A DNA stretch of 58,998 nt from IMG/VR virus record IMGVR_UViG_3300032295_004123, positions 1 through 58,998 of that record; one strand, written 5' to 3'. This DNA is from a virus (lineage: Duplodnaviria; Caudoviricetes). The position numbers and the translations under genes are program-made. This document shows, piece by piece, positions 12,990 through 54,917 of the stretch (position 1 is the first letter of the stretch; each line of letters starts with the position of its first letter). A model generated the notes under the pieces. It searched no databases and was not told the DNA's origin. It worked only from the letters and a program-made list of their open reading frames with translations.

Positions 12990-12990
12990 T

Positions 12991-15928: not shown

Positions 15929-15943
15929 CGTAAAATAAGTTAT

Positions 15944-29999: not shown

Positions 30000-30044
30000 G
30001 ATCCTAATATATGTATAACCGTATATCAACAAAAAATTAAGATT

Positions 30045-30233
30045 ATGAGTACAAAAAAAGATATGACACTTACTAGTGTTAAAATCCAAAGTGATTTATT
30101 TGATGAGTTTAAAGTTTCCTGTGTAAGGCATAAATTCTCGTTCCAAAAGCTTGCCGATCGAGCAATTCATTTGTATCTTACCGATGATGGTTTTAGAAAA
30201 CAAATTCATAATCACAATCAACTAGAGTTATAA
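30045..30233 (+). CDS. Ribbon-helix-helix DNA-binding protein
   Basis: LTSVKIQSDLFDEFK strand-helix-helix pattern. Confidence 0.55.
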   Translation: MSTKKDMTLTSVKIQSDLFDEFKVSCVRHKFSFQKLADRAIHLYLTDDGFRKQIHNHNQLEL

Positions 30234-30244
30234 TAAAATAATTT

Positions 30245-33415: not shown

Positions 33416-34569
33416 TATCTCTAGTTAAAGATACTATTACTAAAAAAGATATTAACAGTTTAATTAAGTGGCTAAAAACATACCCTAGACTTACTAAGGG
33501 AGAGCAAACTCTAAAATTTGAAGCAGAATTCGCTCAATGGGTAGGAAGCCAATATGCTATTTTTGTTAATTCAGGTTCGTCAGCTAACCTATTAATGGTT
33601 TATGCTTTAAAATATGCAAATCTATTAAACACTAATAAAATTGCTATCCCAACACTTTCTTGGGCAACTGACCTTTCTCCTCTACTCCAATTTGGAATCA
33701 CTCCAGTTCTAGTAGATTGTAATTTAAATAATCTCTCAGTTGATCTTAATCATCTTGAAGAGGTTTTTAAAAATGAAAAACCAGATGCTTTTATTTTAGT
33801 CTCAATATTAGGATTATCTCCTGATATGGATAAAATTGTAGAATTGTGTGAGAGATATAATGTTATTCTTTTAGAAGATAACTGTGAATCACAAGGTACT
33901 TCTTATAAAGGTAAAAAATTAGGAACTTTTGGTTTAGCTTCATCATTCTCTACTTTTTTTGGTCATATTATGAGTACTATTGAAGGTGGAGTAATTACAA
34001 CAGATGATGAAGGATTTTATAATCTACTTTTACAACTTAGAAGCCATGGTTGGGATAGAGACCTACCCCCAGAGGAACAAAATTTATTAAGACTTTTATA
34101 TAATGTAAGCAAATTCGATTCTTTGTATACTTTTTATGTACCTGGGTTTAATTTACGTTCTACAGATTTACAAGCTTTTATAGGAATTGAGCAGTTAAAA
34201 AGTATTGATAAAACTATAAAAAAACGAAATCAAAATTTTAAACAATATATTTCTAAATTAAAAAATCATATTTGGGTACCTAAACCTTTAAAAGATACTT
34301 TTACTTCTAGTTTTTGTTTTCCTATTATAGCAGAAAATAAAGAACAAAGAGATAGAATTATATTAAATTTAAGTAAAAATAATATTGAATGTCGTCCTTT
34401 AATTTGTGGATCACTAGGAAATCAACCTTTTTATTCGGACATTTATGGAAATCTTAAATTACCGAATGCCGATGTGGTAGATAGTTGTGGTTTATATATC
34501 CCAAATCATCCCTATTTGACCAAAGAAGAAATTGAATTAGTTTGTAATAGTATAATTGAAGTTTTATGA
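33412..34569 (+). CDS. DegT-family PLP enzyme, ColD-like GDP-4-keto-6-deoxymannose 3-dehydratase
   Basis: [29 protein letters not shown] (His in place of the Schiff-base Lys), RSHGW; adjacent to gmd. Confidence 0.75.
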
Positions 34570-35534
34570 AAACAGCCTTAATAACAGGTATTAATGGTAT
34601 GGATGGAAGTCACTTAGCTGATTTTCTTCTAGAAAAAGGTTACAAAGTTTATGGTGTTGAAAGAAGAGCATCTAATAGAAACCGAGTCAACACTGAGCAT
34701 TTGGTAGGTAAGGTAACCTTCTTACAAGGTGATCTATTAGACCAAAATTCCCTTCTCCGTTGCCTAAAAGAAAGTAACCCAGATGAAATTTATAATTTAG
34801 GTGCTCAATCGTTTGTAGGTGAAAGTTGGAATACTCCAGAACATACCTCTGAGGTAACAGCTTTAGGGGTGTTAAGAATATTAGAAGCAATTCGTGAGTT
34901 TAATCCTAAAATTAGATTCTATCAAGCTTCTAGTTCTGAAATGTTTGGTCGAATGGTAGAAAATCCTTCTAAAGAAACAACTCCATTTTACCCACGTTCA
35001 CCTTATGGTGTAGCTAAACTTTATGGTCATTGGATTACCAAAAATTATAGAGAATCCTACAACATGTTTGCTTGCTCAGGTATCTTATTTAATCATGAAT
35101 CTGAAAGACGAGGTATTGAATTTGTAACTCGTAAAATTACAGATGGTGTAGCTAAAATCCATTTGGGTTTGGCTGATACTATTACTTTAGGTAATCTTGA
35201 TGCTGAACGAGATTGGGGTTATGCTCCTGACTACGTTGAAGCTATGTGGTTAATGCTCCAGCAAGACACCCCAGATGATTATGTAATTGCTACTAATGAA
35301 AAATACTCAGTTAGAGAGTTTTTGACTGAAGCTTTTAAAGTAGTAGGTATTGAAGATTGGTCTTCTTATGTAGTTCAAGATCCTCGTTACATGCGCCCCG
35401 CTGAAGTAGATGTTTTGCTTGGTGATTATACTAAAGCAAAACAGAATTTAGGTTGGTCACCTAAAACTAGCTTTAAAAATCTAGTTCGCATTATGGTTGA
35501 AAATGATATTGAAATTTTAAAAAATGCAAATTGA
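34566..35534 (+). CDS. gmd: GDP-mannose 4,6-dehydratase
   Basis: [44 protein letters not shown]. Confidence 0.95.
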
Positions 35535-35895
35535 AGTATCTGTTGGAGAAATTGTAGATAAACTTTCAATTCTTCAAATAAAAACAGCCTTTATTAAAGA
35601 CGAGGAAAAACTTACTAATATAAAAAAAGAATACAATTATCTTTATGATATAGTTTTCAATGAAATGAAGATTGAACAGTCCGATTTTTTTGATATGGTA
35701 ATTATTAATCAAAAACTTTGGGAAATTGAAGATAATATCCGTGATAAAGAACGTGATAAAAATTTTGATCAAGATTTTATTGAATTAGCTAGATCAGTCT
35801 ATTATATTAATGATGAAAGAGCTAAAGTAAAAAAAGATATTAATTTAAAGTATAATTCTTCTTTTGTAGAAGAAAAATCATATTCAAAGTACTAA
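35524..35895 (+). CDS. DUF6165-like protein
   Basis: [37 protein letters not shown]. Confidence 0.7.
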
Positions 35896-36518
35896 TGAAA
35901 ATAAGTTACGCAGTTACAGTTTGCAATGAATTGGTAGAGATACAACGTCTTCTACCTTTCTTGCTTAAACATAAATCCCCAAATGATGAGGTTGTAGTTC
36001 TATTTGATTCTAAAAATGGTTCCTCATCTGTAGAACAGTATCTAAGGGCATCATCAGTTTCCGATTCTAAATTCAGATGGTACTCCTATGATTTTGAAGG
36101 TAATTTCTCTGATCTAAAAAATCACCTAACTAATCTCTGTACTGGGGATTATATCTTCCAGGTTGATGCTGATGAAATGCCCAACGAAAATCTAATGAGA
36201 TATTTAGGTCCAATCCTCCTTAATAATCCAGTAGATGTAATTCGAGTACCTCGAGTTAATACAGTTTCTGGTTTGACTCCAGAACACGTTCAAAAATGGG
36301 GTTGGGTTGTAGATGGTAAAGGTAGAGTCCAATGGCCTGATTTACAGTGGAGAATCTACAGAAAATCACCGGATATTAAATGGAAAAACAAAGTACACGA
36401 GGTTCTCGATGGTTACAATACTCACGCCGTACTACCGTTAGAAGAAGAATTTGCACTTCAACACCATAAAGATATTAAACGGCAAGAAAAACAAAACGAA
36501 TTATATAGTAGATTATGA
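35895..36518 (+). CDS. GT2 glycosyltransferase
   Basis: VCNE, IFQVDADE, PDLQWR, VHE. Confidence 0.85.
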   Translation: MKISYAVTVCNELVEIQRLLPFLLKHKSPNDEVVVLFDSKNGSSSVEQYLRASSVSDSKFRWYSYDFEGNFSDLKNHLTNLCTGDYIFQVDADEMPNENLMRYLGPILLNNPVDVIRVPRVNTVSGLTPEHVQKWGWVVDGKGRVQWPDLQWRIYRKSPDIKWKNKVHEVLDGYNTHAVLPLEEEFALQHHKDIKRQEKQNELYSRL

Positions 36519-37399
36519 AAATAACTTTTATTTATGCTTATGAAGGTGAAACTTGGTCTACTCCTTTATCTATAGTTAATGAATTTAAAAATAGAGGATG
36601 GGAAACTGAGATTATTTCTATAGGAAGTAATTCTAAAGCTTATTATCATGATACAGATTTAAAAAAGTGGGTTGAATCTAAACCAAAAACAGATCTAGTA
36701 ATGTTTATGGATTGGGGTAGATTTGATTCTCCATATCTAAATAAAGATTTAGTCCCAGCATTTTGGATTCAAGAATCAGGAGACGACCCTCAAAACTTTG
36801 AACGTAATTATCCTAAAGCTAATAGATTTCACATTACCCTCACTCCCGATCACGATTCATATTTAGAATATACAAAACGAGGTATAAATGCTATTTGGTG
36901 GACTCATTTTGCCGACACTCAAATTCATAAACCCCAAAATGTGCCTATTAAATATGCTGCTGTAACTTCAAGAGGTAAAGGTGGAAGTGAATTATTAGAT
37001 ATTTTAACTGAACATTCTGAAGGAGTAATTGCCAATCAAGGTGGTTGGCAAGGTGAAGAACATAGTAAATTTCTTTGCTCTGGAGTAATGGTAATTCAAA
37101 ATAGTCGTTGGGGTGAAGTTACAAGACGTATTTTTGAGGCAATGGCTTGTGGTAAGATGGTATTAACAGATCGTCTAAATGAATCTAAAAAACTTCATGA
37201 ATTATTTGTTGAAAATGAAGAAATAGTTTTTTATGATGATATTGTAGAGTGCATTAATAAAATTAATCATTACACAAATTCTCCTGAAGAATTAAATAGT
37301 ATAGCTTTGAGGGGTAGAGAAAAAATATTATCTTTACATACCCAAGTACAAAGAGTAAACACTATATTAGAACAATGGAAAAACTACCTATCAGCATAG
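36515..37399 (+). CDS. CgeB / Glyco_trans_1_2-like glycosyltransferase
   Basis: TRRIFEAMACGKMVLTD, IALRG..HT..QR. Confidence 0.8.
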   Translation: MKITFIYAYEGETWSTPLSIVNEFKNRGWETEIISIGSNSKAYYHDTDLKKWVESKPKTDLVMFMDWGRFDSPYLNKDLVPAFWIQESGDDPQNFERNYPKANRFHITLTPDHDSYLEYTKRGINAIWWTHFADTQIHKPQNVPIKYAAVTSRGKGGSELLDILTEHSEGVIANQGGWQGEEHSKFLCSGVMVIQNSRWGEVTRRIFEAMACGKMVLTDRLNESKKLHELFVENEEIVFYDDIVECINKINHYTNSPEELNSIALRGREKILSLHTQVQRVNTILEQWKNYLSA

Positions 37400-38118
37400 G
37401 AATCTTATCTTGGAAATCAGGACAAACTTTAGTCAATACTCTATACAGTTACTATGTTAATGGTTTATTAGATATAACTGATGATATTACTATCCTTTTT
37501 CAAGAATGTAGTAAGGAAGATAAAGAAATAGCAGACCACTTTAATATTAATTATTTAGGGCTAGATACTAATATTGGTATTGGTAAAGGATTTATAGAAT
37601 TAACTCAAAGAGCAAAATATGATCATGTTATGATTTTAGAACATGATTGGCAACTTATTGAATTACCTGAGATAACTTTTACTAGACTTTCCCAAGGATT
37701 AAACCTAATTACTAATTCTGACTTTAATTGTATTAGATACCGACATAGAAAAGATCCAGGGTACCCCCACTTTTCATTCCAGTATCAAGGTAGAGAATTA
37801 GATTATTACGACTCTGAAATTGAGTGTACCTCCCCTCACCTACTAGATTCAGTTCATTGGTGTGACCCATATGAAAAATTCCCAGATAAAATTCAAAAAA
37901 CTGGAGAATATTTTACTACAACCTCAAGATGGGCTAATTGGACTAATAATCCTTGTTTGTACTCTAAAGATTTTTATTTAGAGTGTGTAAAACCCTTTGC
38001 TGGAGATGGGATTGCTCTTGAAGGTAATATTTCTCGTTGGTGGGCTAAACAAAATTTTAAAGTAGCTCATGGTGAAGGATTATTTAAACATGTTGATCTA
38101 ATTAAATACGGAAAATGA
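37375..38118 (+). CDS. GT-A fold glycosyltransferase
   Basis: NIGIG, ILEHDW, WTNNP. Confidence 0.7.
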   Translation: MEKLPISIGILSWKSGQTLVNTLYSYYVNGLLDITDDITILFQECSKEDKEIADHFNINYLGLDTNIGIGKGFIELTQRAKYDHVMILEHDWQLIELPEITFTRLSQGLNLITNSDFNCIRYRHRKDPGYPHFSFQYQGRELDYYDSEIECTSPHLLDSVHWCDPYEKFPDKIQKTGEYFTTTSRWANWTNNPCLYSKDFYLECVKPFAGDGIALEGNISRWWAKQNFKVAHGEGLFKHVDLIKYGK

Positions 38119-38819
38119 AAGTAGCCCTATTACTCTCAGGATTAGCTAGAAAAGTAGAAGAAGGTTATAATATAACTTGGAAACATATTATAGATAACTA
38201 CGATACTGATGTTTATCTTCACAGTTGGAAAGATGAAGAATGGGAAAAAGTTTCACAATTTTACCCTAATGCTAAGTCAATTCATATCCAAGAACCGTTT
38301 AAATTTACAACATATAAACAAGGTATTAAGTTACCTCATAATGATACTTCTAGACCTTTACCACAGTATGATGTGATGAGTTGTTTTAGACAGTTTCCTA
38401 TGGTTTATAGTTGGCAAAATGTCTTTCAATTAATGTATGATACTCAAATTGAATATGATTTAGTTATAAGAAGTCGTTATGATTTAGGAATAGAATATCC
38501 TTTAAATTTAGATCTAATTGATGGTAATTTTTTACACCATGCTGGTAATGAGAATTTTTTAGATGATAATCTTTGCATAACTAATCAAAAAAATGCTGAA
38601 ACTTTATATTATGGAGTTTTTTATAAGCTAATAGAACAATCTAGAAAAAAAAGAATTTTAAATAGTGCTGAAGAAAGCTGGACTAAAATAGTAGAAGAAG
38701 CAGGACTATTATTTGATGTTATTAAAAATCCTAATTTAAAATTTACTTTACTTAGAGATAATTGGCTTTGGTGGGGTGATCCACAAGGAAATATTATCTC
38801 TGAAAAGGTATTATCTTAA
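38115..38819 (+). CDS. Putative glycosyltransferase-like protein
   Basis: ALLLSG, DVYLHSW, YDLVIRSRYD. Confidence 0.55.
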   Translation: MKVALLLSGLARKVEEGYNITWKHIIDNYDTDVYLHSWKDEEWEKVSQFYPNAKSIHIQEPFKFTTYKQGIKLPHNDTSRPLPQYDVMSCFRQFPMVYSWQNVFQLMYDTQIEYDLVIRSRYDLGIEYPLNLDLIDGNFLHHAGNENFLDDNLCITNQKNAETLYYGVFYKLIEQSRKKRILNSAEESWTKIVEEAGLLFDVIKNPNLKFTLLRDNWLWWGDPQGNIISEKVLS

Positions 38820-38826
38820 TAAAAAT

Positions 38827-40020
38827 ATGAAAACACCTAAAAATCCAATACAACTTTTTAAAGTCCACATGGCCCCTACAGCTGCTGATGAAGTAGCTAA
38901 AGTATTAAATAGTGGTTATATAGGGCAAGGACCTAAAGTAGATGAATTTGAAAAACAACTTCAATCATTCTTTGAAGTTGATAAACTTGTTACTTTAAAC
39001 TCTGGCACCTCAGGACTACATTTAGCTCTTCATTTGCTTAAAAACCCTAAAAAAACTACTCAGGTTTATCATGGAGTAATAGCTACTGAAAACTATTGGC
39101 CCGGTTTACAACCTGGTGATGAGGTTTTGGCTACTGCTCTTACTTGTACGGCTTCAAATTTTCCTATTTTAGCTAATGGTTTAAAAATTAAGTGGGTAGA
39201 TATTGATCCTACTACACTTAATATGGATTTAGATGATTTAGAACGTAAAATCACTCCAACAACTAAAGCTATTATTTTAGTTCATTGGGGGGGTTATCCA
39301 AATGATTTAGATAGAATTAAAAAGATTCAAATGAAAGCCCAACAAATGTATGGCTTTAAACCTGCTGTAATTGAAGATGGAGCTCACTCATTTGGTTCAA
39401 AATATAAAGGTAAATACTTAGGCAACCATGGGAATATGGTAATGTATTCTTTACAAGCCATTAAACATATAACAGCAATTGATGGTGGTATTTTAACTTT
39501 ACCTCATCAAGAATTATATAATAGAGCTAAATTGATTCGTTGGTACGGAATTGATAGAGATTCTAATCGTAAAGATTTTAGATGTGAAGCCGATATCGAA
39601 GAATGGGGATTTAAATTCCACATGAATGATGTTTGTGCTACAGTAGGAATTGAAAATTTAAAACATGCTAGTGAATTAATAAAACAGCACCAAGAAAATG
39701 CTGCTTATTATGACAAACATTTATCTAACACACCTGGAGTAACCTTATTAAAACGTGAAGAGGGGTTTGAATCTGCATTTTGGATTTATTCCATGCTAGT
39801 AGAAGATCGAGATGGTTTCTACAAACACATGAAAAAGTGTAACATAGTAGCCTCTCAGGTACATGAAAGAAATGATAAACACACTGCAGTTAGAGAGTAT
39901 AAGTCTTCACTTCCTACATTGGATAAAACTATTAGTAAAGTAGTTTCAATTCCTGTAGGTTGGTGGGTTACCGAAGAAGAAAGAGAATATATTGTAAACT
40001 GTATTAAACAAGGATGGTAA
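38827..40020 (+). CDS. DegT/DnrJ sugar aminotransferase (perosamine synthase-like)
   Basis: NSGTSGL, EDGAHS, SLQAIKHITAIDGG with catalytic Lys; ATG at 38827 preferred. Confidence 0.85.
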   Translation: MKTPKNPIQLFKVHMAPTAADEVAKVLNSGYIGQGPKVDEFEKQLQSFFEVDKLVTLNSGTSGLHLALHLLKNPKKTTQVYHGVIATENYWPGLQPGDEVLATALTCTASNFPILANGLKIKWVDIDPTTLNMDLDDLERKITPTTKAIILVHWGGYPNDLDRIKKIQMKAQQMYGFKPAVIEDGAHSFGSKYKGKYLGNHGNMVMYSLQAIKHITAIDGGILTLPHQELYNRAKLIRWYGIDRDSNRKDFRCEADIEEWGFKFHMNDVCATVGIENLKHASELIKQHQENAAYYDKHLSNTPGVTLLKREEGFESAFWIYSMLVEDRDGFYKHMKKCNIVASQVHERNDKHTAVREYKSSLPTLDKTISKVVSIPVGWWVTEEEREYIVNCIKQGW

Positions 40021-40439
40021 CATTAAGACCTTTAACTAAAGAAGATTTACCTTTTTTACTAGAAGTAAGAAATGATTACTCTACCAGACGTAATCTAGAA
40101 AATGATTCTGTATTTACTTTAGAGCAATGTGAAAATTGGTTTAATAATTTAAAATCTCCTTGGTATATAATTGAAGTAAATAGATTTGCTGTTGGGTATC
40201 TAAGAACAAATGGAGATGAAATAGGGTGTGATATTCATCCTAATTTCCGTAGAAATGGATATGCTAAAATGGCTTATGAAATTTATTTAAAAGATAAAAC
40301 TTATGCTAGTTTATGGGTCTTTAGTGATAATTTTGCTAAAAATTTATATAAACAACTAGGTTTTAAAGAAACTGGAGAACGAGGGTTTGTTAGAGGGAGA
40401 AGTTATATAAAAATGGAATGGGGTGAAAATAGGAATTAA
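40014..40439 (+). CDS. GNAT N-acetyltransferase
   Basis: LRPL, IHPNFRRNGYA, AKNLYKQLGF. Confidence 0.85.
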   Translation: MVTLRPLTKEDLPFLLEVRNDYSTRRNLENDSVFTLEQCENWFNNLKSPWYIIEVNRFAVGYLRTNGDEIGCDIHPNFRRNGYAKMAYEIYLKDKTYASLWVFSDNFAKNLYKQLGFKETGERGFVRGRSYIKMEWGENRN

Positions 40440-41088
40440 TTTAGTAGGTGTATCTTTTAATGATGGTACTTATGGGCGTTATAGAAACTATAAAGATGCT
40501 ATAAATGAATTTAACACATGGATAGTTAACCCATTAAAAGAAGAAGGACACGAAGTATTATTTTACATTTGTACCTACTATAATGATAAATTAAAAGAGA
40601 TAGAACAAGATTATAAACCTCAAAACTTTGTTATTGCCCCTCCATCTTACAATAATTTAGGTGGAGGTGATAAAGTAGGATCATATAAAGCTATTTCTTC
40701 TATTTATTTAAATAGTTTAAATTTTCTTCAAAACCAAGACTTAGATTTAATTATTTCAACTAGGTTTGATATAAAATTTTTTAAAAATCCCTTTAAAGAA
40801 TATAACTTTGATTTTACTAAATTTAATTTTCTTTGGAGAGAACCTGAGTATACTAATTTACCTATTGTAAATGATACTTTTGTAGTGTTTCCTTACTCTA
40901 TGTTAGATAATGTTATATCATCAATTGAAGAAATGGAAACTAATCCACCTGAAGGTATAAATGTAGCTATGCATAATTGGTATCTTCCTATGGTTAATCA
41001 AGTTGGAGCTGAAAATGTTCAATGGGTTGATGATGAATTTAAAAATGCTATAACTAATGATCTTTATATTTTAACTCGCCATGACTAA
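40423..41088 (+). CDS. Putative glycosyltransferase-like protein
   Basis: LDLIISTRFD; similar to 27062 and 38115. Confidence 0.5.
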   Translation: MKIGINLVGVSFNDGTYGRYRNYKDAINEFNTWIVNPLKEEGHEVLFYICTYYNDKLKEIEQDYKPQNFVIAPPSYNNLGGGDKVGSYKAISSIYLNSLNFLQNQDLDLIISTRFDIKFFKNPFKEYNFDFTKFNFLWREPEYTNLPIVNDTFVVFPYSMLDNVISSIEEMETNPPEGINVAMHNWYLPMVNQVGAENVQWVDDEFKNAITNDLYILTRHD

Positions 41089-41845
41089 AATTATCAGTGG
41101 TTACCTTTGGGCCTATCGAAATGTAGATTCAGGAATAAAATCTCTCCAAAGCCTTCAAAAACACTACCCGAATGCTGATTTATTTATAAATGTAGATTAT
41201 GAGGGGGATTTAATTAATTATCAACAACGTGGTTTAGAAATAGGAGCTAAAACTTCAATTAATCTTTTCCAATTAGGTTATTGTGGTAACTTTGGTAACG
41301 TCCAGGTAGGTAGAGAGTGTTGGGATAAAAAAGCAACTTTTGAATGGTTTAGAGGTTTTTATGAGGCCTGCAAAAAAACAGATTCTTATTATATGCTTCT
41401 TTTAGAAGAAGATGATTTTGTTTTAAAACCTATTACTATTTTACAATATGATTTTAGCATAGCGATTCACCCTACAGCTCCTAGCCCAACAGGTAGAATG
41501 AGACCTAATTATATTAATCAAGAATTTTTTGATTATTCTAAACAACATGGTGGAGTTGATAATTGTCCTGGGTATGCATCAGGTGGGGGAACTATAGTAA
41601 ATAGAGAACAATTTATAAAAGCTTGGGAAGATTGTAAAGATCATTTCTACCAAAATTATGATGATTTAGTAAAAATCAACAAAATTATAGGTTGGATTGA
41701 TTTCAGTTTACAATATGTTATGATGCTTGGGGGGTATGAAGTAATTCAAAATCCTACTCTTTGTGAACATTGGGAAGTCCCTACAGGCTGGGAGCAATTT
41801 GATATTATTACGGGTTTAAAAGACCATACTTTAATTGAACTATAA
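41081..41845 (+). CDS. GT-A fold glycosyltransferase-like protein
   Basis: LLLEEDD, GGGTI. Confidence 0.55.
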   Translation: MTKIISGYLWAYRNVDSGIKSLQSLQKHYPNADLFINVDYEGDLINYQQRGLEIGAKTSINLFQLGYCGNFGNVQVGRECWDKKATFEWFRGFYEACKKTDSYYMLLLEEDDFVLKPITILQYDFSIAIHPTAPSPTGRMRPNYINQEFFDYSKQHGGVDNCPGYASGGGTIVNREQFIKAWEDCKDHFYQNYDDLVKINKIIGWIDFSLQYVMMLGGYEVIQNPTLCEHWEVPTGWEQFDIITGLKDHTLIEL

Positions 41846-42744
41846 TGTTACATATAATAATTCATACTTTACCTTACGAACTTAATGCCTTAGAACAAAC
41901 ATTAATCCAGTTAAAAAGGTCCAGTCAATATCTAAATGAGAATCATAGAGTAAGAATTGAGGTTTTATTAAACACTAATCTAGTAGATTGGTCCTTTTCA
42001 GTCCTAGATATAAATTTTTTCAGCTCAGCCTATCACGAGTTAATTAAAATAAATGAAGATTGGGCCGAGTGTGTTTTAAGGATAGATACTGAAGGTAAGT
42101 TTTTAGGGTGTAATGATTTAAGACGACATACTTTTAGAACAACAGATGCTGATTATGTTATGTATCTGGATACTGATGTTATTTTTAATGATACTTTATT
42201 AAGAAGAATATTTGATAGTATTGAACTTGTAACTAATCCTTTATGCATTATCACTCCCCAACTCACCAGAATGTGGGACACTACTTGGGATGTAGTTAGT
42301 AATGAAAGTTTTTTCAATGAGGAAGCAACTCATGAAAATTATTTTAACAGAGATCCTTATAAAAGTACCTTTTTTAATTCTAGTATTAATCTTAAACCTA
42401 TATCTGAGTTTAAGTTTGCTGGGTGGGGTACTGTAATTGCAACTAAATTGGGTAGATTTATTGATATTCCTGATTCATTAGGTCCTTATGGATTAGATGA
42501 TACTTTTATCATGTATGCCTGTGGAATAATGAAACATCATAATATTCACCCTCAACAATATGTTATTGAAGGTGAACTTGTTATTGAAAATAATAAGTTT
42601 AGGTTGGAGTATTTAAAGTCTTTAATTAAATTTATAGATAGAAAAGAAGAATTTACTCAACAATCCCATTCTAATTTCCAACCTGAATTAATTAAGTTCA
42701 ATGAAAAACTTACTGATAGGGAACATAACTCGGTACACCCCTGA
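41845..42744 (+). CDS. GT-A fold glycosyltransferase
   Basis: YLDTDV DxD motif, YGLDD. Confidence 0.65.
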   Translation: MLHIIIHTLPYELNALEQTLIQLKRSSQYLNENHRVRIEVLLNTNLVDWSFSVLDINFFSSAYHELIKINEDWAECVLRIDTEGKFLGCNDLRRHTFRTTDADYVMYLDTDVIFNDTLLRRIFDSIELVTNPLCIITPQLTRMWDTTWDVVSNESFFNEEATHENYFNRDPYKSTFFNSSINLKPISEFKFAGWGTVIATKLGRFIDIPDSLGPYGLDDTFIMYACGIMKHHNIHPQQYVIEGELVIENNKFRLEYLKSLIKFIDRKEEFTQQSHSNFQPELIKFNEKLTDREHNSVHP

Positions 42745-43504
42745 TAAAATCCACCATTGGGTCCAATCTGCCAAAAAACATTTCTCAGGAGAAATTTTAA
42801 CTATAGTGTATGATGTTCCTGAAGAAACCCTTCAATATCTTAAAGAAAATAATGTTAGTGTAGTTGTTACTCAACCTACTGGATTACATATAGTAGTTCA
42901 AAGATTTTTAGACATTTATAATTTTTTGACTCAACACTCTGATTATGAGTATGTTGTAGTTACTGATGTTAAAGATGTAATATTTCAAAGGGATCCTATA
43001 AAACATATAAAGGATGTTTATAAGATGCAATTTGATAAAGTAATAGTAGGAAGTGAGGGTCTTAAGTATGTAGATGAAGATTGGGGAAATAATAACTTAG
43101 CTACTTGTTATCCCCACTTATATGAAAATCATAAAGACAATGAAATTTTTAATGCTGGGACTTTTGGGGGTGTATCTTCTTATGTTAGAGATCTTTGTTT
43201 TAGTGTATTCCATCTTAGCTTAGTCGGGACACAACATGATCCTCAACCTGATCAAGCAGCATTTAATCTAATCCTTAATACCCAACCTTGGAAAAAAGTA
43301 ACTTGTTTTAATTCCTTAGAAGAGAGTTGGTGTGCTCAGTTAGGAACAACCTTAGACCCTAAAGTTGCATCCAAATACACTTCCAAATTATTATCCAATC
43401 CCCCAGTAATAAAAAATAATCAAGTTTTTACCCACTCTGGAGAATTATATTGCATAGTTCACCAATATGATAGGATTCCAGGGTTAGAGATAGAATATTT
43501 ATAA
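42701..43504 (+). CDS. GT-A fold glycosyltransferase-like protein
   Basis: TDVKDVIFQ, NAGTFGG, DQAAFN, VHQYDR. Confidence 0.65.
   Translation: MKNLLIGNITRYTPDKIHHWVQSAKKHFSGEILTIVYDVPEETLQYLKENNVSVVVTQPTGLHIVVQRFLDIYNFLTQHSDYEYVVVTDVKDVIFQRDPIKHIKDVYKMQFDKVIVGSEGLKYVDEDWGNNNLATCYPHLYENHKDNEIFNAGTFGGVSSYVRDLCFSVFHLSLVGTQHDPQPDQAAFNLILNTQPWKKVTCFNSLEESWCAQLGTTLDPKVASKYTSKLLSNPPVIKNNQVFTHSGELYCIVHQYDRIPGLEIEYL
43494..43503 (+). promoter_or_regulatory. AATATTTATA putative late promoter motif
   Basis: Identical motif at 4790, 5885, 10613 and 57484, each just upstream of a start codon. Confidence 0.5.
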
Positions 43505-49124: not shown

Positions 49125-49254
49125 AGCTAGAACTGTTTACCCCCCTAATTGGGAAGCGAGGCAGAAAATGAGTCTTAAAGAAAAATGTGATTACTTTAAT
49201 AGTTGGGCACAAAAGTTATAGTATTTATGGATGACATTTTTGAAGACTTTATAG

Positions 49255-49437
49255 ATGAAGAAGATTCCCAACAAAAGGAGAAGCACCGAAGAGGGTCATA
49301 TGGCAGCTTTAGTGAGGAGGAAGATGATTACTAAAAATCATGGTAATCTCAAAGAGTATAAAAGAAAAAATAAACATTATAAGGGTTGGGATTCCAACCC
49401 TTCTTTAACTAGATTTGGTTTATTGGAAAATTTTTAG
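49255..49437 (+). CDS. Small basic protein, ArfA/BrfA-like ribosome rescue factor candidate
   Basis: YKRKNKH matches the ArfA YxRKxKH motif; terminator-like hairpin inside the 3' coding region. Confidence 0.45.
   Translation: MKKIPNKRRSTEEGHMAALVRRKMITKNHGNLKEYKRKNKHYKGWDSNPSLTRFGLLENF
49381..49406 (+). terminator. Intrinsic terminator-like hairpin within the ORF
   Basis: AAGGGTTGG-gatt-CCAACCCTT-cttt. Confidence 0.65.
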
Positions 49438-49643: not shown

Positions 49644-50047
49644 CATGATAAGATTATCTAAAACAACTCAAACCTACATCATTCACTCCGAAACTGATGA
49701 TTTGTACTATACTTTGGTACATGAAATAGATCATGATGATTGTGAAGAGGAGTATATTACTATTACAGACGAAAATGAGTTTGAAGTAGAAAATGATGAA
49801 CTTTTTGAAGAGCTATGTGATTTATGGGAAAAACATTTAAAAACCTCAAGTGAAATTCAGATATGAGTGAAATTGAAAAGATAATGTATAAAGCTTATAA
49901 AAAGGGAATTCAACAACGAGTTTTTGCTTTATCTCAACAGTTAATAATAGATCATCCAAAAATGGATCATGTTGAAAGAATTGAAACTGCTTACAAAATT
50001 GCTAAAAAAGAAATCAAAAATAACTAACCTCTAATTTTTAACCAGTT

Positions 50048-50734
50048 ATGATCGAAACTTACAAAAACCAAGAACTCGAGAATGTCATTTTTGACATTGA
50101 AAGTCAAGATGAATGGAAGGACATCGTCGCAGAGTTAGGCCTGGGCAATCAGATGTCTTTTATGGAAAAGGCTAGCTCCCCGCTTCCTTATCCTCACCTC
50201 AATCAATCAATGAAGAACATCTTCAAAACTCTTTGTCCAGCTGAAACAACTTTAGACAAGTACAACAAGACTCCAATCCCGTTGGAGGTGTTGAGAGAGA
50301 TCAAGTTCTGCAATCAAGAGAAGTACTTCGATAAGATTGTTATCTACTACGACGATAAGAATCCTGACCCGGTGGTGATCGGCTCTCTAAAGAAGTATCA
50401 AGCTTACTACAAAAACTCAGAAGGAGAGTCTAACTCTACAGCCTACGAGTTCTCATCTGAAGCTCAAGCTAAAGAGTATGTAGAAATAATTGGAGGTAAG
50501 ACTACCAACGTTTTTTCAGAGGTAAATGAGTACTTGATTGCTCGATGGGGGGATGAACTGCGTCCTATGAGTGAGCTTAAGAAGATGGCTATCGAACGTT
50601 TAGCGGATAAGTACACGACTGAGTGGAAACTAGCTATGGAAGATCTGAAAAAGAAGCTTGCCAATGCAGAAGATACGGTTAAGCGCTTTATTAATGCTGA
50701 GATCTCAGAATGGGATTTGAGAAAAAATTTATAA
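50048..50734 (+). CDS. Hypothetical protein
   Basis: 228-aa ORF with visibly more G/C-ending codons than its neighbours. Confidence 0.7.
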   Translation: MIETYKNQELENVIFDIESQDEWKDIVAELGLGNQMSFMEKASSPLPYPHLNQSMKNIFKTLCPAETTLDKYNKTPIPLEVLREIKFCNQEKYFDKIVIYYDDKNPDPVVIGSLKKYQAYYKNSEGESNSTAYEFSSEAQAKEYVEIIGGKTTNVFSEVNEYLIARWGDELRPMSELKKMAIERLADKYTTEWKLAMEDLKKKLANAEDTVKRFINAEISEWDLRKNL

Positions 50735-50744
50735 TAATAAAAAT

Positions 50745-51005: not shown

Positions 51006-51194
51006 TGGAACAAGTTCGTGAAATGCTCAATAAGTATGAGTATTATCTCAATCAAGGGATGATTGTATTAGCTATGGAATACAAGCATCGTGCTGATATG
51101 TTAATGGCTAAATTAGAAGCGTAATGGTATTTTTAGGAATTATTATCGCACTGTTGTTGATTGAGATCTTAGCTGAGATTAAACGTCAACGGAA

Positions 51195-51407
51195 ATGAAA
51201 CAGACAGCAGTAGAGTGGCAACACATTGAGTTATCAAAATTTCTTTATGGAAAATCAGAATTTACAGACGCAAATGATATTCTAATTAAAGCCAAAGCAA
51301 TGGAGAAGGAGCAGATTGTAAATTCCTATACTTCCAATTCGATGATACGCACCAACTCTAAGGCAGAAAAATACTACAACGAAACCTTTAACACCAACGA
51401 GAAATGA
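51195..51407 (+). CDS. MKQTAVEW-family small protein
   Basis: Shares MKQTAVEW, AKxMExExI and NETF with 51980 ORF. Confidence 0.65.
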   Translation: MKQTAVEWQHIELSKFLYGKSEFTDANDILIKAKAMEKEQIVNSYTSNSMIRTNSKAEKYYNETFNTNEK

Positions 51408-51532
51408 AAACAAAACAACAAAGTAACTATGGTGACATTGAAGAAGACCTATCACAAAAGGCATTAGCAGTATTTTTCCTAATTGGATTAGTAATTGCAT
51501 TAGTTCCTTTATTAGTATTAATAAACCTTTAA
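51404..51532 (+). CDS. 42-aa membrane peptide between repeats (not in the ORF track)
   Basis: MKTKQQ..ALAVFFLIGLVIALVPLLVLINL; start and stop both lie in repeats. Confidence 0.6.
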   Translation: MKTKQQSNYGDIEEDLSQKALAVFFLIGLVIALVPLLVLINL

Positions 51533-51544
51533 CACCAACGAGAA

Positions 51545-51772
51545 ATGAAAACACTAACATTTGTAATTGCAGACCGCCTGGATGAATTAGCTGGAGAGTG
51601 GTCTAAACACACCCCACAGTGCGAGGCATTGATGATGGCGGCGAAAGAAGTTGCGACCTTCGAGCAAGAAGAAAAAGAAAGAATGGTTGACTTCGCATAC
51701 AAGTACGGGAACTTGACCCTTCAACAGATTTCTGATGCTTTTGATAACGAGTACAAAAACGAGAATCTTTAA
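51545..51772 (+). CDS. Cassette hypothetical protein
   Basis: Start and stop within repeat copies. Confidence 0.65.
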   Translation: MKTLTFVIADRLDELAGEWSKHTPQCEALMMAAKEVATFEQEEKERMVDFAYKYGNLTLQQISDAFDNEYKNENL

Positions 51773-51784
51773 CACTAAAGAGAA

Positions 51785-51967
51785 ATGAAAAAAATGTATG
51801 AAAAAGAGCTAACTGCAATTAAAGATAACATTGTAGGCGCTACTATATTAAGCATTGAACACAACGAAAACGCTGATGAAGGAATGATATTAACTCTAGA
51901 CACTGGAGTTAAAGTAGAATTTGGATGGAGCGGTTGGTACGGATGGTGTAAAGTATTAACAGTTTAA
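51785..51967 (+). CDS. Cassette hypothetical protein
   Basis: Start and stop within repeat copies. Confidence 0.65.
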   Translation: MKKMYEKELTAIKDNIVGATILSIEHNENADEGMILTLDTGVKVEFGWSGWYGWCKVLTV

Positions 51968-51979
51968 CATTAACGAGAA

Positions 51980-52714
51980 ATGAAACAGACAGCAGTAGAA
52001 TGGTTGATTGAAAAACAACTTGATGCAGGTATTGGATTGCCAAAAGAATGGCGTGAACAAGCCAAAGAAATGGAAAGAGAGTTAATTAAAGAGTCTTGTA
52101 CTATGGCTATTATGCAATGGCACAAATGGGATAAGACAAACTATTTAGATAAGTATGACCATAAAATAGAAGGTGCTGAAATATGGTCAGAAGATTATGT
52201 TAAAGAATTGTACGGAGAGATTGAAGTTCCTGAATTAAATAAAGTAATGGAACTATTTAACGATTATACTTCGTACTGCCAATACGTTAAAGAGGAATGG
52301 AATGACGGTTACATCAATGAGCTTTTTGAAAGTGGTTATATAGTTGAAAAGGAATATATTGGTGAATACGAATGTGCTTCAAGAGATATTGAATACAGAA
52401 TGCTTACCGAAAGTGAATTTAACGAAACCTTTAGCACAGAAGAGCAAATGACACGAGAAGAAAAATTAGAAACAATAGTAAAGCTATTCGCAAAAAGTAT
52501 GTTTTACGGTGATTGGAAATGGGAAACTCCAAACGAAAGAGTTATCACTATGCTAATGCAAGAGGTTGGTATGTACCCGTTTAAAGACGAGGATGATATG
52601 ATTTCTAAAACTCCAGTAAACGACGAGTTGTATAAAAAGGTAATTAAGGAAATACCACCCAGACAAGCTAAAGGTTGGGATGAAAGTGTATCATATAAAG
52701 CCAGCGAGGAATGA
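51980..52714 (+). CDS. MKQTAVEW-family protein, apparent fusion of two cassettes
   Basis: Internal degenerate repeat reads NETFSTEEQ-M157. Confidence 0.65.
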   Translation: MKQTAVEWLIEKQLDAGIGLPKEWREQAKEMERELIKESCTMAIMQWHKWDKTNYLDKYDHKIEGAEIWSEDYVKELYGEIEVPELNKVMELFNDYTSYCQYVKEEWNDGYINELFESGYIVEKEYIGEYECASRDIEYRMLTESEFNETFSTEEQMTREEKLETIVKLFAKSMFYGDWKWETPNERVITMLMQEVGMYPFKDEDDMISKTPVNDELYKKVIKEIPPRQAKGWDESVSYKASEE

Positions 52715-52920
52715 AAGCAAAAGAAAAAGCAGAGGAATTAGTAAGAAAATATTACACCTTTGGAATTAATAAAGAAGGTCAAACATTAAGTTGGAATGAA
52801 TGTAAGCAATGTGCATTGGTTGCAGTTGATGAGGTATTGAATGAAGAAAATCATTTTATTCAAACAGATGCACATTTTTTATATTGGGAGGAAGTAAAAC
52901 AAGAAATTGAAAACCTTTAA
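52711..52920 (+). CDS. Cassette hypothetical protein
   Basis: KEKAEELV..CALVAVDEVL..YWEEVKQEIENL; stop lies in the repeat. Confidence 0.65.
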   Translation: MKAKEKAEELVRKYYTFGINKEGQTLSWNECKQCALVAVDEVLNEENHFIQTDAHFLYWEEVKQEIENL

Positions 52921-52932
52921 CACCAACGAGAA

Positions 52933-53016
52933 ATGATACTAATGGCAGCTTGTTTAATCTCAATACCTCTCTGGATAATAGCGGATATGTTGAGACAATT
53001 AGTTAATAAGAAATGA
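52933..53016 (+). CDS. 27-aa hydrophobic peptide (not in the ORF track)
   Basis: Starts at the repeat ATG; ATGA overlap with the phosphoesterase. Confidence 0.45.
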   Translation: MILMAACLISIPLWIIADMLRQLVNKK

Positions 53017-53747
53017 AAACAGTCTTCCTAGGAGATACACACGGTCGTTCCATTTGGAAAGATATTATCAAAGCAGAAAACCCTGACCGGGTTATCTTCT
53101 GGGGAGATTACTTTGATTCATTTGATATCCCAGGTGTATCTCAGATCCGTAACTTCAAAGACATTATCGAGTTCAAAGAGAACACCGATAAGGAAGTTAT
53201 CATGTTGATTGGTAATCACGATCACCATTACATGGATGCTGGTGAGACTTACAGCGGTCACCAAGCAGCATTGCATTGGGATATTCACGATTTATTAAAG
53301 CAAAATAAACACCACTTACAGGTTGCTTATCAACTCGATAATATAATCTGCACTCATGCAGGTTTGAGTCCTGTATGGCTAAGTTATTGCTTACCAGGTT
53401 GGCAACATGAAAATGTAGTTGAACTGGTAAATGATCTGTTTACCTATCACCCACAACGATTCAATTTTAGTCAAGCTGGTTGGGATCCTTACGGTGATGA
53501 TGAATCACAAGGTCCATTTTGGATTCGCCCTAGAGCTTTAATGAAAGCTAATAAGGGTAAAGGAGGATTTAAGAAGAACTATATTCAAATAGTAGGACAT
53601 ACTCAAGTAACAAATATTTTTGATTCATTTGAAACTACTAAAAAATCAATGGGTGCTAAATATTATTTAATTGACGCTCAAGAAACCAATGGTTATGTTG
53701 TCTATCAAGATGGACAATTGATACCCTCTGTAATTGATATTATGTAA
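53013..53747 (+). CDS. Calcineurin-like metallophosphoesterase
   Basis: GDTHG, GDYFD, GNHD, THAG, GHT. Confidence 0.9.
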   Translation: MKTVFLGDTHGRSIWKDIIKAENPDRVIFWGDYFDSFDIPGVSQIRNFKDIIEFKENTDKEVIMLIGNHDHHYMDAGETYSGHQAALHWDIHDLLKQNKHHLQVAYQLDNIICTHAGLSPVWLSYCLPGWQHENVVELVNDLFTYHPQRFNFSQAGWDPYGDDESQGPFWIRPRALMKANKGKGGFKKNYIQIVGHTQVTNIFDSFETTKKSMGAKYYLIDAQETNGYVVYQDGQLIPSVIDIM

Positions 53748-54222: not shown

Positions 54223-54254
54223 TTTGGTTATCTGAAAAATAGTTCATATCTTTA
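54223..54254 (+). promoter_or_regulatory. Early promoter variant
   Basis: TTTG-N20-TATCTTTA. Confidence 0.65.
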
Positions 54255-54278
54255 GACATAATTATAAAAAATAAGGTT

Positions 54279-54566
54279 ATGAAGTTATTCGAATTGAAAG
54301 ATAAAAACAACAAATCAACTGATTTATTTAAAATTGAAGACTTTACTTCAGTAAAGGAAGTTTTTGATCTATTACATAAGCATTTTAATATGACAGTAAT
54401 TGACGAGTCTGATTCTCTTTATACTGACGAAAAAGAAGGCAGTTTTAATTACGTTTATGTAGCAGATGACGGTTTTTGTCGATTTGTAGAATCTTTAACT
54501 GAATTCAGTGAGAATTATCAGAGTGAAGAAGATTGGCAAGTACATAGTTCAGTTGAAGTAAAATAA
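54279..54566 (+). CDS. Hypothetical early protein
   Basis: Own promoter and aaaaataaggtt leader. Confidence 0.6.
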   Translation: MKLFELKDKNNKSTDLFKIEDFTSVKEVFDLLHKHFNMTVIDESDSLYTDEKEGSFNYVYVADDGFCRFVESLTEFSENYQSEEDWQVHSSVEVK

Positions 54567-54626
54567 AAGAATAGATTTATCAAAGAATAGTTCGTATATT
54601 TACGTATAATAAAAAATAAAAAGGTT

Positions 54627-54818
54627 ATGTTTGAAGAGATTCAAGAGTCACACAATGTCTATTTGGACACAGCTTTCGAGGGTGTAGTAAAGTCAATTTG
54701 TCTGGAATTAAATAGAGATCAGGAGTTTACTTTTGATCAGATAAAGGCTTACTTGAAGTTGAAGTTGGATTTAGAGTTAGAGTCTTTTAAAAAAGATTGG
54801 GTAGGAGAGGACGAATAA
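54627..54818 (+). CDS. Hypothetical early protein
   Basis: Preceded by TATATTTA (54595). Confidence 0.6.
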   Translation: MFEEIQESHNVYLDTAFEGVVKSICLELNRDQEFTFDQIKAYLKLKLDLELESFKKDWVGEDE

Positions 54819-54840: not shown

Positions 54841-54872
54841 GTTGGTTCGTATTAACTTAGTTAGTATATTTA
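54841..54872 (+). promoter_or_regulatory. Early promoter variant
   Basis: GTTG-N20-TATATTTA. Confidence 0.55.
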
Positions 54873-54917
54873 GGTATAATTAAAAACAACAGAATAATTT
54901 AATTTATTTTGGATAAT

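Follow-up and report, generated by a model that had tools for sequence, protein, structure and literature searches.

A 25-28-nt stop-to-start junction recurs between rearranging small genes of uncultured phages

A single 25-28-nt junction stands at hundreds of gene boundaries in environmental phages, and recent insertions, deletions, fusions and permutations between near-identical genomes coincide with it. Our preferred reading, to which we give a probability of about 60%, is that it serves as a portable stop-spacer-start linker by which translation is coupled in phages that initiate independently of Shine-Dalgarno (SD) sequences, and that it also supplies short homology for cassette exchange. 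The case comes from a 58,998-nt stretch of viral DNA (the window), in which the initial annotation had described a 25-nt repeat between small genes. On the same reading, the 1.8-kb array that carries the repeat (51195-53012) was probably, to judge by sequence comparison, acquired as a block by a ~155-kb phage with a backbone that is otherwise free of the element.

The exact 25-mer (AAACCTTTAACACCAACGAGAAATG) occurs at 51382-51406, 51523-51547 and 52911-52935, always on the + strand, as against no match in 100 dinucleotide shuffles. With a degenerate pattern we recovered five forward copies (51387, 51528, 51768, 51963 and 52916; 0.03 expected), all within the array, and none on the reverse strand of the 58,998-nt record or in controls; a repeat-family search placed the motif in a six-copy family that includes a variant at 52425. 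The exact copies and variants annotated from the letters alone were thereby confirmed, and a second annotated repeat was found at 51192 and 51977 (27 nt, 96% identity). The consensus, AAAC-CTTTAACACCAACGAGAAATG-AAA, is about 25-28 nt long, A/C-rich, G-poor and asymmetric, contains neither GGAG nor GAGG, and is non-palindromic as first described: the repeat search of the window detected no inverted-repeat arms or self-complementarity at any copy. The G+C content of the array (34.7%) is not distinct from that of the rest of the contig (32.4 +/- 2.5%), and the idea that it is compositionally foreign was rejected.

Open reading frames were called crudely, from the first ATG and on the + strand, where all the features that follow lie. 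The left boundary of the inserted array is the 3' end (..CAACGGAAATGA) of a 24-aa backbone membrane mini-ORF (51124..51198; MVFLGIIIALLLIEILAEIKRQRK), whose homologues in three related contigs (L125, L127 and G011) stand directly before the next gene. What had been taken for a remnant of the repeat at ~51182 is this 3' end; it is present in array-less relatives and resembles the 3' half of the motif only. Cassette c1 (51195..51407; 70 aa) belongs to the MKQTAVEW family, a real family with a common central AKEMEKEQI block, and ends in ETFNTNEK with a TGA overlapping the next ATG at the first exact copy. Cassettes c2 (51404..51532; 42 aa, with a hydrophobic C-terminus) and c3 (51545..51772; 75 aa) both end in NL-TAA, inside the second exact copy and inside a variant with two mismatches in the 21-nt core (51763..51787), respectively, and c4 (51785..51967; 60 aa) ends in V-TAA inside a variant with three core mismatches (51958..51982) that also gives the ATG of c5. 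The latter (51980..52714; 244 aa) consists of two modules fused in frame, c5N (51980-52447) and a C-module (52448-52714), which meet at a degenerate copy (52425..52450) one base longer than the 25-mer; this extra base puts the ATG (52448) in frame, the in-frame state of this copy having been noted initially. No motif stands between c5 and c6, which simply overlap by ATGA. Cassette c6 (52711..52920; 69 aa) ends in IENL-TAA inside the third exact copy, sixth in order, which starts c7 (52933..53016), a 27-aa membrane mini-ORF whose end (AAGAAATGAAAAC) overlaps the start of a backbone calcineurin-like metallophosphoesterase gene (53013..53747) and bounds the array on the right; in L125-L127 the phosphoesterase gene directly follows the 24-aa mini-ORF. 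The stop usage in the initial annotation (one ATGA overlap, NL-TAA three times, V-TAA once) agrees with these coordinates. No Pfam or PHROGs match was obtained for c1-c5, and c6 matched only phrog_21441, whose function is not known.

A search across viral contigs, which the initial annotation had suggested, showed that the junction is common to many phages. At least 119 stretches of IMG/VR viral contigs contain the 21-nt core without mismatch, before many different genes: the 103 unique contexts fall into 53 downstream clusters (at least 53 gene families), with a median downstream ORF of 68 aa. Across the listed loci, conservation has sharp edges (-4 to +24) and the motif always ends on ATG. 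When up to five mismatches were allowed, the 1.04 Mb of listed loci plus window gave 320 matches, versus 3 in a reversed control, and in every source with at least three copies (48 of the 119 listed loci, and the window) all copies lay on the same strand, in arrays of up to nine. Carrier contigs span 32-52% G+C. G006, G007 and G013 are complete motif-bearing genomes; complete 67-kb genomes carry 13 and 6 copies and lack the GroEL of the window. The exact motif served to ascertain all 119 loci, of which 109 are joined in one network of shared proteins, so many of these counts are not independent.

Among 50,697 cultured-phage records, blastn with the region and with a 35-nt query returned no match or partial matches at chance level, and tblastn with c5 returned nothing; homologues of c6 were found at 38-46% in Pseudanabaena phage Pan5 and Nonlabens phages P12024S/L, without the motif at their gene junctions. 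The 21-mer had no match in 185,579 bacterial species genomes. A 19-mer sub-pattern had three isolated matches there, in two Bacilli MAGs and one Marinilabiliales MAG, without arrays; by our own estimate chance alone would give about four, and these matches therefore point to no particular host. The carriers are uncultured freshwater phages, with Bacteroidota as the likely host phylum.

In 54 of the 103 unique contexts the upstream gene stops at the ATGA overlap; 25 use the internal TAA, 10 have their stop before the motif, and the remaining 14 have no upstream ORF; the motif overlaps the last codons of its upstream neighbor in 79 of 103. Two of the three incoming frames are closed in this way, one by a TAA 12 nt before the ATG and the other by the TGA of the ATGA overlap, in which case the protein acquires a tail ..TFNTNEK. 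The repeat could instead be the conserved C-terminal end (..YYNETFNTNEK) and N-terminal start (MKQTAVEW..) of a single tandem-duplicated paralogous family, since many upstream proteins do end in YYNETFNTNEK and 21 of the 103 contexts belong to one downstream cluster, many members of which start with MKQTAVEW. Frame usage already contradicts this idea, which we regard as barely credible: the same nucleotides are read in two frames (54 versus 25 contexts), 14 contexts follow non-coding DNA or a tRNA, the upstream proteins are unrelated (Cys-rich, membrane and PD-(D/E)XK nuclease proteins) and the downstream families number 53.

Other contigs have different "dialects" of the junction with the same layout of TAA, 10-13-nt spacer and ATG. 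In the window, an SD-like word precedes only 9 of 103 gene starts. The mean predicted unpaired probability is higher at motif starts (0.64) than at other starts (0.54; p about 1e-14), a modest difference. At the mRNA level, the preferred linker reading would have the upstream ORF terminated at TAA or ATGA in two of three frames and the next ATG offered in an A/C-rich, G-poor, weakly structured context that dispenses with an SD sequence. Because the linker brings its own stops and ATG, translation of any gene placed upstream would end there, and that of the downstream gene would start through coupling or re-initiation.

The closest relatives of the window, with flanks 97% identical, are without any of the 1.8-kb array and carry no copy of the motif. 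In one of them (L127) positions 51196-53010 are missing between such flanks, three whole records (G001, of 130 kb, G002 and G003) contain zero copies, and all that the empty site shows is about 14 nt similar to the 3' half of the motif. At the same locus in contig G011, the order of the C-module, c6 and c5N is a circular permutation, and each of the three breakpoints falls on a motif copy; here c5N is a free-standing 156-aa gene ending in NETFNTKEK, the C-module is fused to a different N-module, and c3 lies at another place in the genome. Cassette c3 also occurs at 88-97% identity at other places in 15 other contigs. G013, a complete genome of 173 kb, has only two motif copies, and c3 is the sole gene they bracket. 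A homologue of c4 follows an exact motif at a different place in the related contig L128. The initial annotation had proposed a junction at which genes are added, removed or reordered with stop and start kept. This is what the missing array in 97%-identical relatives, the rearrangements in G011, G013 and L128, the many gene combinations elsewhere and the breakpoint enrichment described below support; gene order varies and the repeat is widespread, clearly the opposite of the fixed order and unshared repeat that would have told against the proposal.

Internal homology ended inside a motif copy in 492 of 1678 cases, compared with 1.3% of random positions. Gene starts were breakpoints in 82 of 124 cases when they carried the exact motif and in 113 of 185 when they carried a copy with 1-5 mismatches, compared with 301 of 1957 other starts, that is, 61-66% versus 15%, with odds ratios of about 11 (exact) and 9 (degenerate); the degenerate copies had not been used for ascertaining loci. 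We considered whether the motif is only a favoured translation leader under selection, with mosaic joints merely surviving at gene boundaries. Such boundaries are general mosaic joints, as the 15% of ordinary starts shows, and the motif is less structured than other starts and A-rich with A at -3, the base that Flavobacterium johnsoniae favours there according to PMC6847099. However, breakpoints are ~4x commoner at motif starts even when the copies are degenerate (113/185 versus 301/1957), all three breakpoints of the window/G011 permutation lie on motif copies, and selection for an unstructured leader fails to explain 21-nt identity across contigs of 32-52% G+C, all of which makes this reading improbable.

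At the DNA level, near-identical copies of the linker would provide short homology for crossover, for which the candidate enzymes are the Erf-type annealase and PD-(D/E)XK exonuclease that many carriers encode, or else RecA of the host; crossover at the copies could then delete, duplicate, permute and exchange whole genes within and between phage genomes. The linker would be common to a large pool of small accessory genes. Among the 119 listed loci, the array lies directly behind a DUF3799 PD-(D/E)XK exonuclease gene in 66 and Erf annealase is present in 14, although this proximity may reflect only the ordinary early-region layout of such phages. That no recombinase is visible holds for the window, in which no annealase was seen, but not for these other loci with their exonuclease (66/119) and Erf (14/119) genes. 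Integrases, transposases and reverse transcriptases (RTs) were absent from the 40 window proteins searched against Pfam and PHROGs, the window covering ~38% of the genome, and from the 20 commonest neighbor families of the 119 listed loci.

These results bear on whether the array is integron-like, as was initially suggested, with a dedicated recombinase or nuclease acting on the 25-mer to cut out and insert units of motif plus gene. In integrons, cassettes carry attC, an imperfectly palindromic site that forms a hairpin when single-stranded and is used by the tyrosine recombinase IntI. The likeness is real in that both form unidirectional arrays of small promoterless genes around a recurring site, with content that varies between relatives; moreover, a single cassette sits between two copies in the otherwise motif-free 173-kb genome, and the circular permutation in G011 is what would result if a circle were excised and then re-entered at a different copy. 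Unequal crossing-over, however, yields that permutation equally well. No integrase, transposase or RT was found in the proteins and families just described, and none of IntI type beside the array; the 25-nt site, unlike attC, is non-palindromic, forms no hairpin and lies within coding and translation signals; and the empty site in relatives has only the ~14 nt like the 3' half of the motif. The 5' part of the motif is replaced at different points (GACTAACACC.., GGAAAACCAACG.., ATTAAAACCAACG..), which favours variable crossover points and homology-driven exchange. A dedicated site-specific system is therefore very unlikely, and the element is not an integron; it works like the T4 PeSLs and mycobacteriophage SAS discussed below.

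Promoter-early stem-loops (PeSLs) of T4-type phages are short, conserved regulatory cassettes repeated between small non-essential ORFs in hyperplastic regions, and indels or replacements between close relatives are bounded by their copies, with homologous recombination between copies (Arbiol et al. 2010, PMC2839356; Comeau et al. 2014, PMC4122927). Copy-bounded indels are likewise found here. PeSLs as described there, however, consist of a sigma-70-like promoter and a terminator stem-loop and are intergenic, whereas the linker has neither component and overlaps upstream codons; it is shared word for word across genome types (67 kb and 173 kb); and mini-circles from neighbouring copies are a feature of PeSLs, while the linker is known from assembled contigs alone.

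By analogy with PeSLs, the motif may be primarily a transcription signal, either a phage or host promoter or a regulator site resembling "stoperators", with recombination as a by-product. Stoperators of cluster A mycobacteriophages are binding sites for a DNA-binding regulator. Exact conservation suggests sequence-specific recognition, lineage-specific dialects would fit co-evolving factors, and the motif can directly follow a 75-nt stem-TTTTT element, a hairpin or a tRNA-Arg. Since 21-nt identity exceeds what an unstructured leader needs, a promoter or a sequence-specific trans factor, protein or RNA, is conceivable. Most copies nevertheless lie in tightly packed coding sequence, overlapping the last upstream codons (79/103), and the motif itself contains no stem-loop. 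Between 49000 and 56000 a scan for sigma-70-type promoters, as distinct from Bacteroidota-type or phage-specific ones, gave 28 sites, the shuffle level (28.3), none of them on motif copies; by our own reading the motif also has no match to the Bacteroidota -33/-7 promoter consensus, and no terminator-like site was found on the + strand of 51124-53016. Finally, the element occurs in unrelated genome types, including the 173-kb genome with two copies round one cassette, and with so few copies there and none in the close relatives of the window a cognate phage factor in such genomes is unlikely. We therefore consider a primary role in transcription unlikely.

The start-associated sequences (SAS) of cluster K mycobacteriophages have a 13-bp consensus, GGGATAGGAGCCC, with the SD core AGGAG (Pope et al. 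2011, PMC3203893). Like the linker, SAS is an asymmetric repeat in one orientation at the starts of non-structural genes of different families, sometimes includes the upstream stop and is absent from host genomes, and a putative role in translation initiation is proposed for it (PMC3203893). The two have no sequence similarity as far as the consensus given there goes, and the motif differs from the 13-bp SD consensus. SAS is reported there 3-7 bp upstream of the start, in 11-19 copies over half the genome of a single phage cluster (PMC3203893), whereas the linker is 25-28 nt long, lacks an SD sequence, includes the ATG and two stops, forms clustered arrays and travels with cassettes into backbones otherwise without it. 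A broader precedent is the modular theory of phage evolution as discussed for lambdoid phages, in which short conserved boundary sequences allow homologous reassortment of non-homologous neighbours; such sequences are rarely found, and illegitimate recombination became the default explanation (PMC3029335). In our dataset, junctions of unrelated modules do coincide with homology breakpoints, with the difference that one defined sequence with a built-in stop and start marks hundreds of them.

The linker thus offers a concrete, testable case of small accessory genes traded between phages, across genome types too. Small accessory genes are the usual home of host-takeover and anti-defence functions. 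It also represents a natural "frame-tolerant" coupling linker for SD-independent hosts that could aid studies of re-initiation and the building of operons in Bacteroidota. It is quite improbable, in our judgment, that the motif is the recognition site of a dedicated trans-acting function that actively mobilises motif and small-gene units between unrelated phage lineages, be it an RNA-binding regulator or an enzyme, nuclease or annealase, by which exchange is initiated; if it were, the array would exemplify a phage-borne integron-like cassette system built on a stop-start adaptor and not on a palindromic attC, and the lineage-specific dialects would be compatibility groups.

In contigs of four sequencing runs, depth peaks and loose ends occur at motif edges (51363-51372, 51408-51415, 52005 and 52936), together with short-sided joints between motif copies (for instance 51407 to 51979, 51393 to 52908 and 52913 to 51195). 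These joints, including those that go back to an earlier position, come from the junctions of other organisms and only repeat the comparison of contigs. Portions of the stretch are present in two RNA-library runs, among them c4 in a different setting and the backbone form that lacks the array; their source may be DNA carry-over.

Some copies of the motif lie directly after a hairpin with a U-run or after a tRNA, as a promoter would. A conserved 75-nt element ending in a stem and TTTTT directly precedes the motif in at least 10 loci; it may be a terminator, a small RNA or a 32-aa ORF. Lying between motif copies, it does not exceed shuffled sequences in stability (z about -1) and shows too little variation for covariation to be assessed. 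No Rfam family reached its gathering score in the window plus six loci, and the window contains no tRNA. A GTTGCA-TTTTT-TGCAAC hairpin directly precedes the motif in other loci, and in one further locus (L108) the motif stands 5 nt after a tRNA-Arg.

An exact 25-mer, AAACCTTTAACACCAACGAGAAATG, occurs three times on the + strand of the window by direct reading of the region (51382, 51523 and 52911), and it had no match in 100 dinucleotide shuffles. A degenerate pattern of this motif (a 25–28-nt repeat with a 21-nt core) finds five copies in the window against 0.03 expected, and all five copies with three or fewer mismatches are confined to one 1.9-kb stretch on a single strand. A repeat search gave a further variant at 52425 (family D2) and a second repeat at 51192 and 51977 (family D10). 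The copies join small genes, here c1–c7, in an array at 51124–53016. The initial annotation had described upstream genes stopping in different frames inside copies that supply the next ATG, and the ORF table bears this out: the TGA of c1 (51195–51407; tail ..ETFNTNEK) overlaps the next ATG; c2, c3 and c6 end ..NL-TAA, with the stop within the repeat; the V-TAA end of c4 falls within the 51958 variant; and an extra base in the 52425 copy puts its ATG in frame within a 244-aa ORF. The cassette proteins had no match of known function in Pfam or PHROGs.

At least 119 viral-contig stretches in IMG/VR hold the exact core, which ends on ATG in 126 of 126 occurrences among the matches listed. Across 100 unique contexts, high information content is limited to -4 through about +24 (AAAC-core-AAA), with both sides at background. 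We counted frame usage in 103 unique contexts among the matches listed, the window's three included: the ATGA overlap ends the upstream ORF in 54 (tail ..TFNTNEK) and the internal TAA does so in 25 (tail ..NL), while in 10 that ORF has already closed ahead of the motif. The other 14 contexts lack an upstream ORF, and the motif there is preceded by a hairpin, a tRNA-Arg (contig locus L108) or a conserved 75-nt element that finishes with a U-run. Downstream genes in these contexts fall into 53 clusters (median 68 aa), and upstream proteins are as varied, including Cys-rich proteins, membrane peptides, a PD-(D/E)XK nuclease and the MKQTAVEW family. Allowing up to five mismatches with the ATG fixed gave 320 copies in 1.04 Mb (the loci listed plus the window), against 3 in a reversed-sequence control. 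Wherever a source holds at least three copies (48 of the 119 loci listed, and the window), all lie on a single strand; arrayed copies are 100–500 nt apart, up to 9 consecutively. The 21-mer was not found in 185,579 bacterial and archaeal species (one genome each), where a 19-mer sub-pattern gave 3 isolated matches, a chance level.

The 75-nt unit (GAGAACTCCGCC...CGGAGTCTTTTT), which is highly conserved, takes the place of a "cassette", with a motif variant on one side and an exact motif on the other, and has at least 10 different upstream contexts (L021, L053, L088, L105–L107, L109, L110, L115 and L116); in the copies of L085 and L091, ATT replaces ATG. Candidate identities for it are a 32-aa ORF, a small RNA and a terminator-like hairpin with a U-run; its fold is no more stable than those of shuffles (z about -1).

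Homology between loci frequently ends at the motif. All-against-all blastn of the loci yielded 1678 distinct internal homology ends, 492 of which (29%) fall within a motif copy; for random positions the figure is 1.3%. Counted per gene start (breakpoint within -22..+6), in contigs ascertained by the exact motif, with crude ORF calls and many mutually related loci, breakpoints mark 82/124 exact-motif starts (odds ratio about 11) and 301/1957 other starts in the same loci; starts with 1–5 mismatches, a class outside that ascertainment, have them in 113/185 cases (odds ratio about 9). The motif connects one downstream gene (MREQFMRIAMARL..) with five or more different upstream sequences, and a single upstream sequence with eight or more different downstream genes.

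Close relatives capture such changes at the window's own array. Five related contigs were retrieved with the phosphoesterase gene at 53013–53747. Over most of a 12-kb comparison one of them, L127, matches the window at 97% identity; it differs by four whole-gene indels, among them 51196–53010. In L125, L126 and L127 the order is a 39-aa gene, a 22-aa membrane mini-ORF and, immediately after it, the phosphoesterase; the array-less joint lies within ..AAACG(C/G)AAATGAAAACAG.., which resembles the 3' half of the motif. At three or fewer mismatches the motif is absent from the whole records of these relatives (130 kb at 81% completeness, 58 kb and 42 kb). Because of this indel, the empty joint and the motif-free records, we take the array to be a block gained by the window, or lost in its relatives, in a backbone otherwise devoid of the element.

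A further relative, G011 (118 kb), carries a different array at the same locus. Its first gene (164 aa) fuses an MKTPIKELI-type N-module to the C-module of window c5 (87% over 98 aa), its second is c6 (96%), and its third is a separate 156-aa ORF, 95% identical to residues 1–156 of c5 and ending ..NETFNTKEK; a motif copy with a GTG start then precedes the phosphoesterase. Since G011 holds the halves of c5 in separate genes, window c5 is two cassettes fused through the one-base-longer 52425 copy. In the DNA itself, window 51980–52444 and 52421–52912 match G011 at 96% and 93% in the opposite order, and all three breakpoints (51980, about 52425 and 52912) fall on motif copies. The arrangement is a circular permutation, of the type expected from unequal crossing-over or from excision and re-entry. 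Other cassettes also occur elsewhere: c3 lies at another place in G011, and the complete 173-kb genome G013 has just two motif copies, which flank c3; in L128, another related contig, c4 follows an exact motif on the downstream side of the phosphoesterase.

L127 also differs from the window by whole genes that are not motif-bounded, at 49227–49429 (a 60-aa ORF) and 50040–50743 (a 228-aa ORF, 50048–50734). A 47-nt intergenic repeat unrelated to the motif (family D5; 54235–54281, 54583–54629 and 54853–54899) has copies that end on gene starts and contain a TATAAT-like box. A 95-aa ORF (54279–54566) lies exactly between two of them and is missing in L127, whose single copy spans the joint, an indel like those of the PeSLs of T4-type phages with a repeat different from the motif. 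D5-type copies also occur three times in G011 (L231).

The window is an entire IMG/VR virus record (58,998 nt, linear, CheckV completeness 38%) of a large phage with clamp loader, thymidylate synthase, endolysin and Cas4-like exonuclease genes. Two ORFs about 200 nt apart make up its split family-B DNA polymerase, the first (17463–19184) holding the exonuclease and the start of the polymerase domain and the second (19393–20322) the remainder. QueC-like, QueE-like and GTP cyclohydrolase genes (10629–11423, 12943–13773 and 15899–16648) point to 7-deazaguanine DNA modification, and a sugar-modifying block (25701–43504) encodes glycosyltransferase, aminotransferase, epimerase and nucleotidyl-transferase. 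The GroEL-type chaperonin (21679–23328) recurs in G013 at 62% identity. We infer a host in the Bacteroidota because of the G+C content (32.5%), the rarity of SD-like words (9 of 103 + strand gene starts), the sole nucleotide match among cultured phages (Flavobacterium phage immuto; 261 nt, 76%) and a BT4734-like primase domain in other carrier contigs.

Among the 119 loci listed, 109 are linked by at least one common ORF of at least 120 aa (single linkage), and G+C ranges from 32 to 52%. The commonest array neighbor is a DUF3799 PD-(D/E)XK nuclease (66 loci), whose stop codon falls in the motif opening the array; Terminase_3 large subunit (26), Erf annealase (14) and BT4734-like/DnaB primase-helicase (14) also recur. 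Two complete 67-kb genomes have 13 and 6 copies (three or fewer mismatches), grouped in small-gene arrays whose products mostly end ..NTNEK or ..TNEK; both lack the window's GroEL.

We favor, at a probability of roughly 0.6, the reading that the element is a stop-start coupling linker that also serves homologous exchange. It closes two frames, both in use, and opens the next gene; it is arrayed, and it coincides with recent indels, one fusion and one permutation. According to two reports (PMC6847099, PMC7797042), an A-rich context and weak structure set initiation where ribosomes ignore the SD. With its stop either overlapping the ATG or 12 nt ahead of it, in an A/C-rich, G-poor tract, the element would favor coupling or re-initiation whatever the upstream gene; predicted unpaired probability is 0.64 at motif starts versus 0.54 at other starts. 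Homologous exchange could act on the 25–28 nt of identity. One report (PMC3945230) credits Rad52-like phage annealases with promoting mosaics among diverged sequences, and the Erf and exonuclease beside the array in many carriers would be candidate exchange enzymes. Entry to a motif-free backbone appears to use a resemblance of about 10–14 nt at an ordinary gene start. We hold the linker reading no higher mainly because the base-for-base identity of the motif has two candidate answers: it could reflect concerted evolution by frequent exchange, or recognition by a trans-factor.

Among known systems, the T4 PeSLs are repeated regulatory cassettes that mediate modular shuffling in hyperplastic regions; the element works in a similar way, but no sigma-70-type promoter and no stem-loop was predicted on it. 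It resembles the start-associated sequences (SAS) of cluster K mycobacteriophages in position, asymmetry and orientation, yet it is longer, SD-less, holds stops and the ATG, is clustered and crosses genome types. It also fits the type of "short conserved boundary sequence" that modular theory predicts and that is seldom found in practice. The integron-like system initially proposed was not sustained, as the element fails to show an integron's defining features: scanning of 40 window proteins and of the 20 commonest neighbor families turned up no integrase, and the site is non-palindromic. The 21-mer was not found in the searchable literature, nor the motif in 50,697 cultured-phage records, which gave chance-level partial matches only.

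Cassette families sampled independently of the motif place it in a wider setting. Thirteen of fifteen full-length c3 homologues (88–97% aa identity), collected without motif selection, have it at their start (3 of them exact, 4 one mismatch away and 6 three mismatches away). Most of the variation is a 5' part swapped at varying points, with ..AACCAACGAGAAATG retained; 10 of the 15 end ..NEK-TGA straight on the following ATG, and the 5' half of the motif is missing there. The c6 family (phrog_21441; 222 related loci) is far broader than the motif, since among the best 80 loci it stands (three or fewer mismatches) at the start in 5 and at the end in 2. Other contigs of this set (L159, L163, L207; L153, L154, L208; L219; L194; L224) have recurring junctions of their own (CTTTAAACAACAAACAAAATG, TTTAAAAACAAATAAGATATG, CCTTTAAATCAGAATAGAATG) that keep the layout, ..CTTTAA, a 10–13-nt A-rich spacer and ATG, with a different spacer sequence, and we regard these as probable lineage-specific "dialects" of the linker.

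At a tandem c6-family junction, GAAAACCTATGACACCAAAAGAAAAAGC (L191, L193 and other c6 loci), an ..ENL-stop overlaps Met-Thr-Pro-Lys-Glu-Lys; 16 of its first 18 positions match the motif with its left flank (window 52905–52935). Speculatively, the motif may have descended from a c6-type tandem gene junction. The MKQTAVEW/MKTPxQEL proteins (window 51195–51407, 51545–51772 and 51980–52447) form a genuine family with a common central AKEMEKEQ(I/M) block around which differing N- and C-terminal halves are paired, so that mosaicism also reaches inside the cassette genes, at a conserved stretch; some members share the C-half of c3 (..DFA(F/Y)KYG(D/N)LT..). In Nonlabens phage P12024S (L131), a cultured Flavobacteriaceae phage related to this gene pool, neighboring starts (282–311 and 464–493) share an upstream repeat of ~26 nt (..AATCAAATTAG(T/C)TTATTTTAATT-ATG), a start-associated repeat other than the motif.
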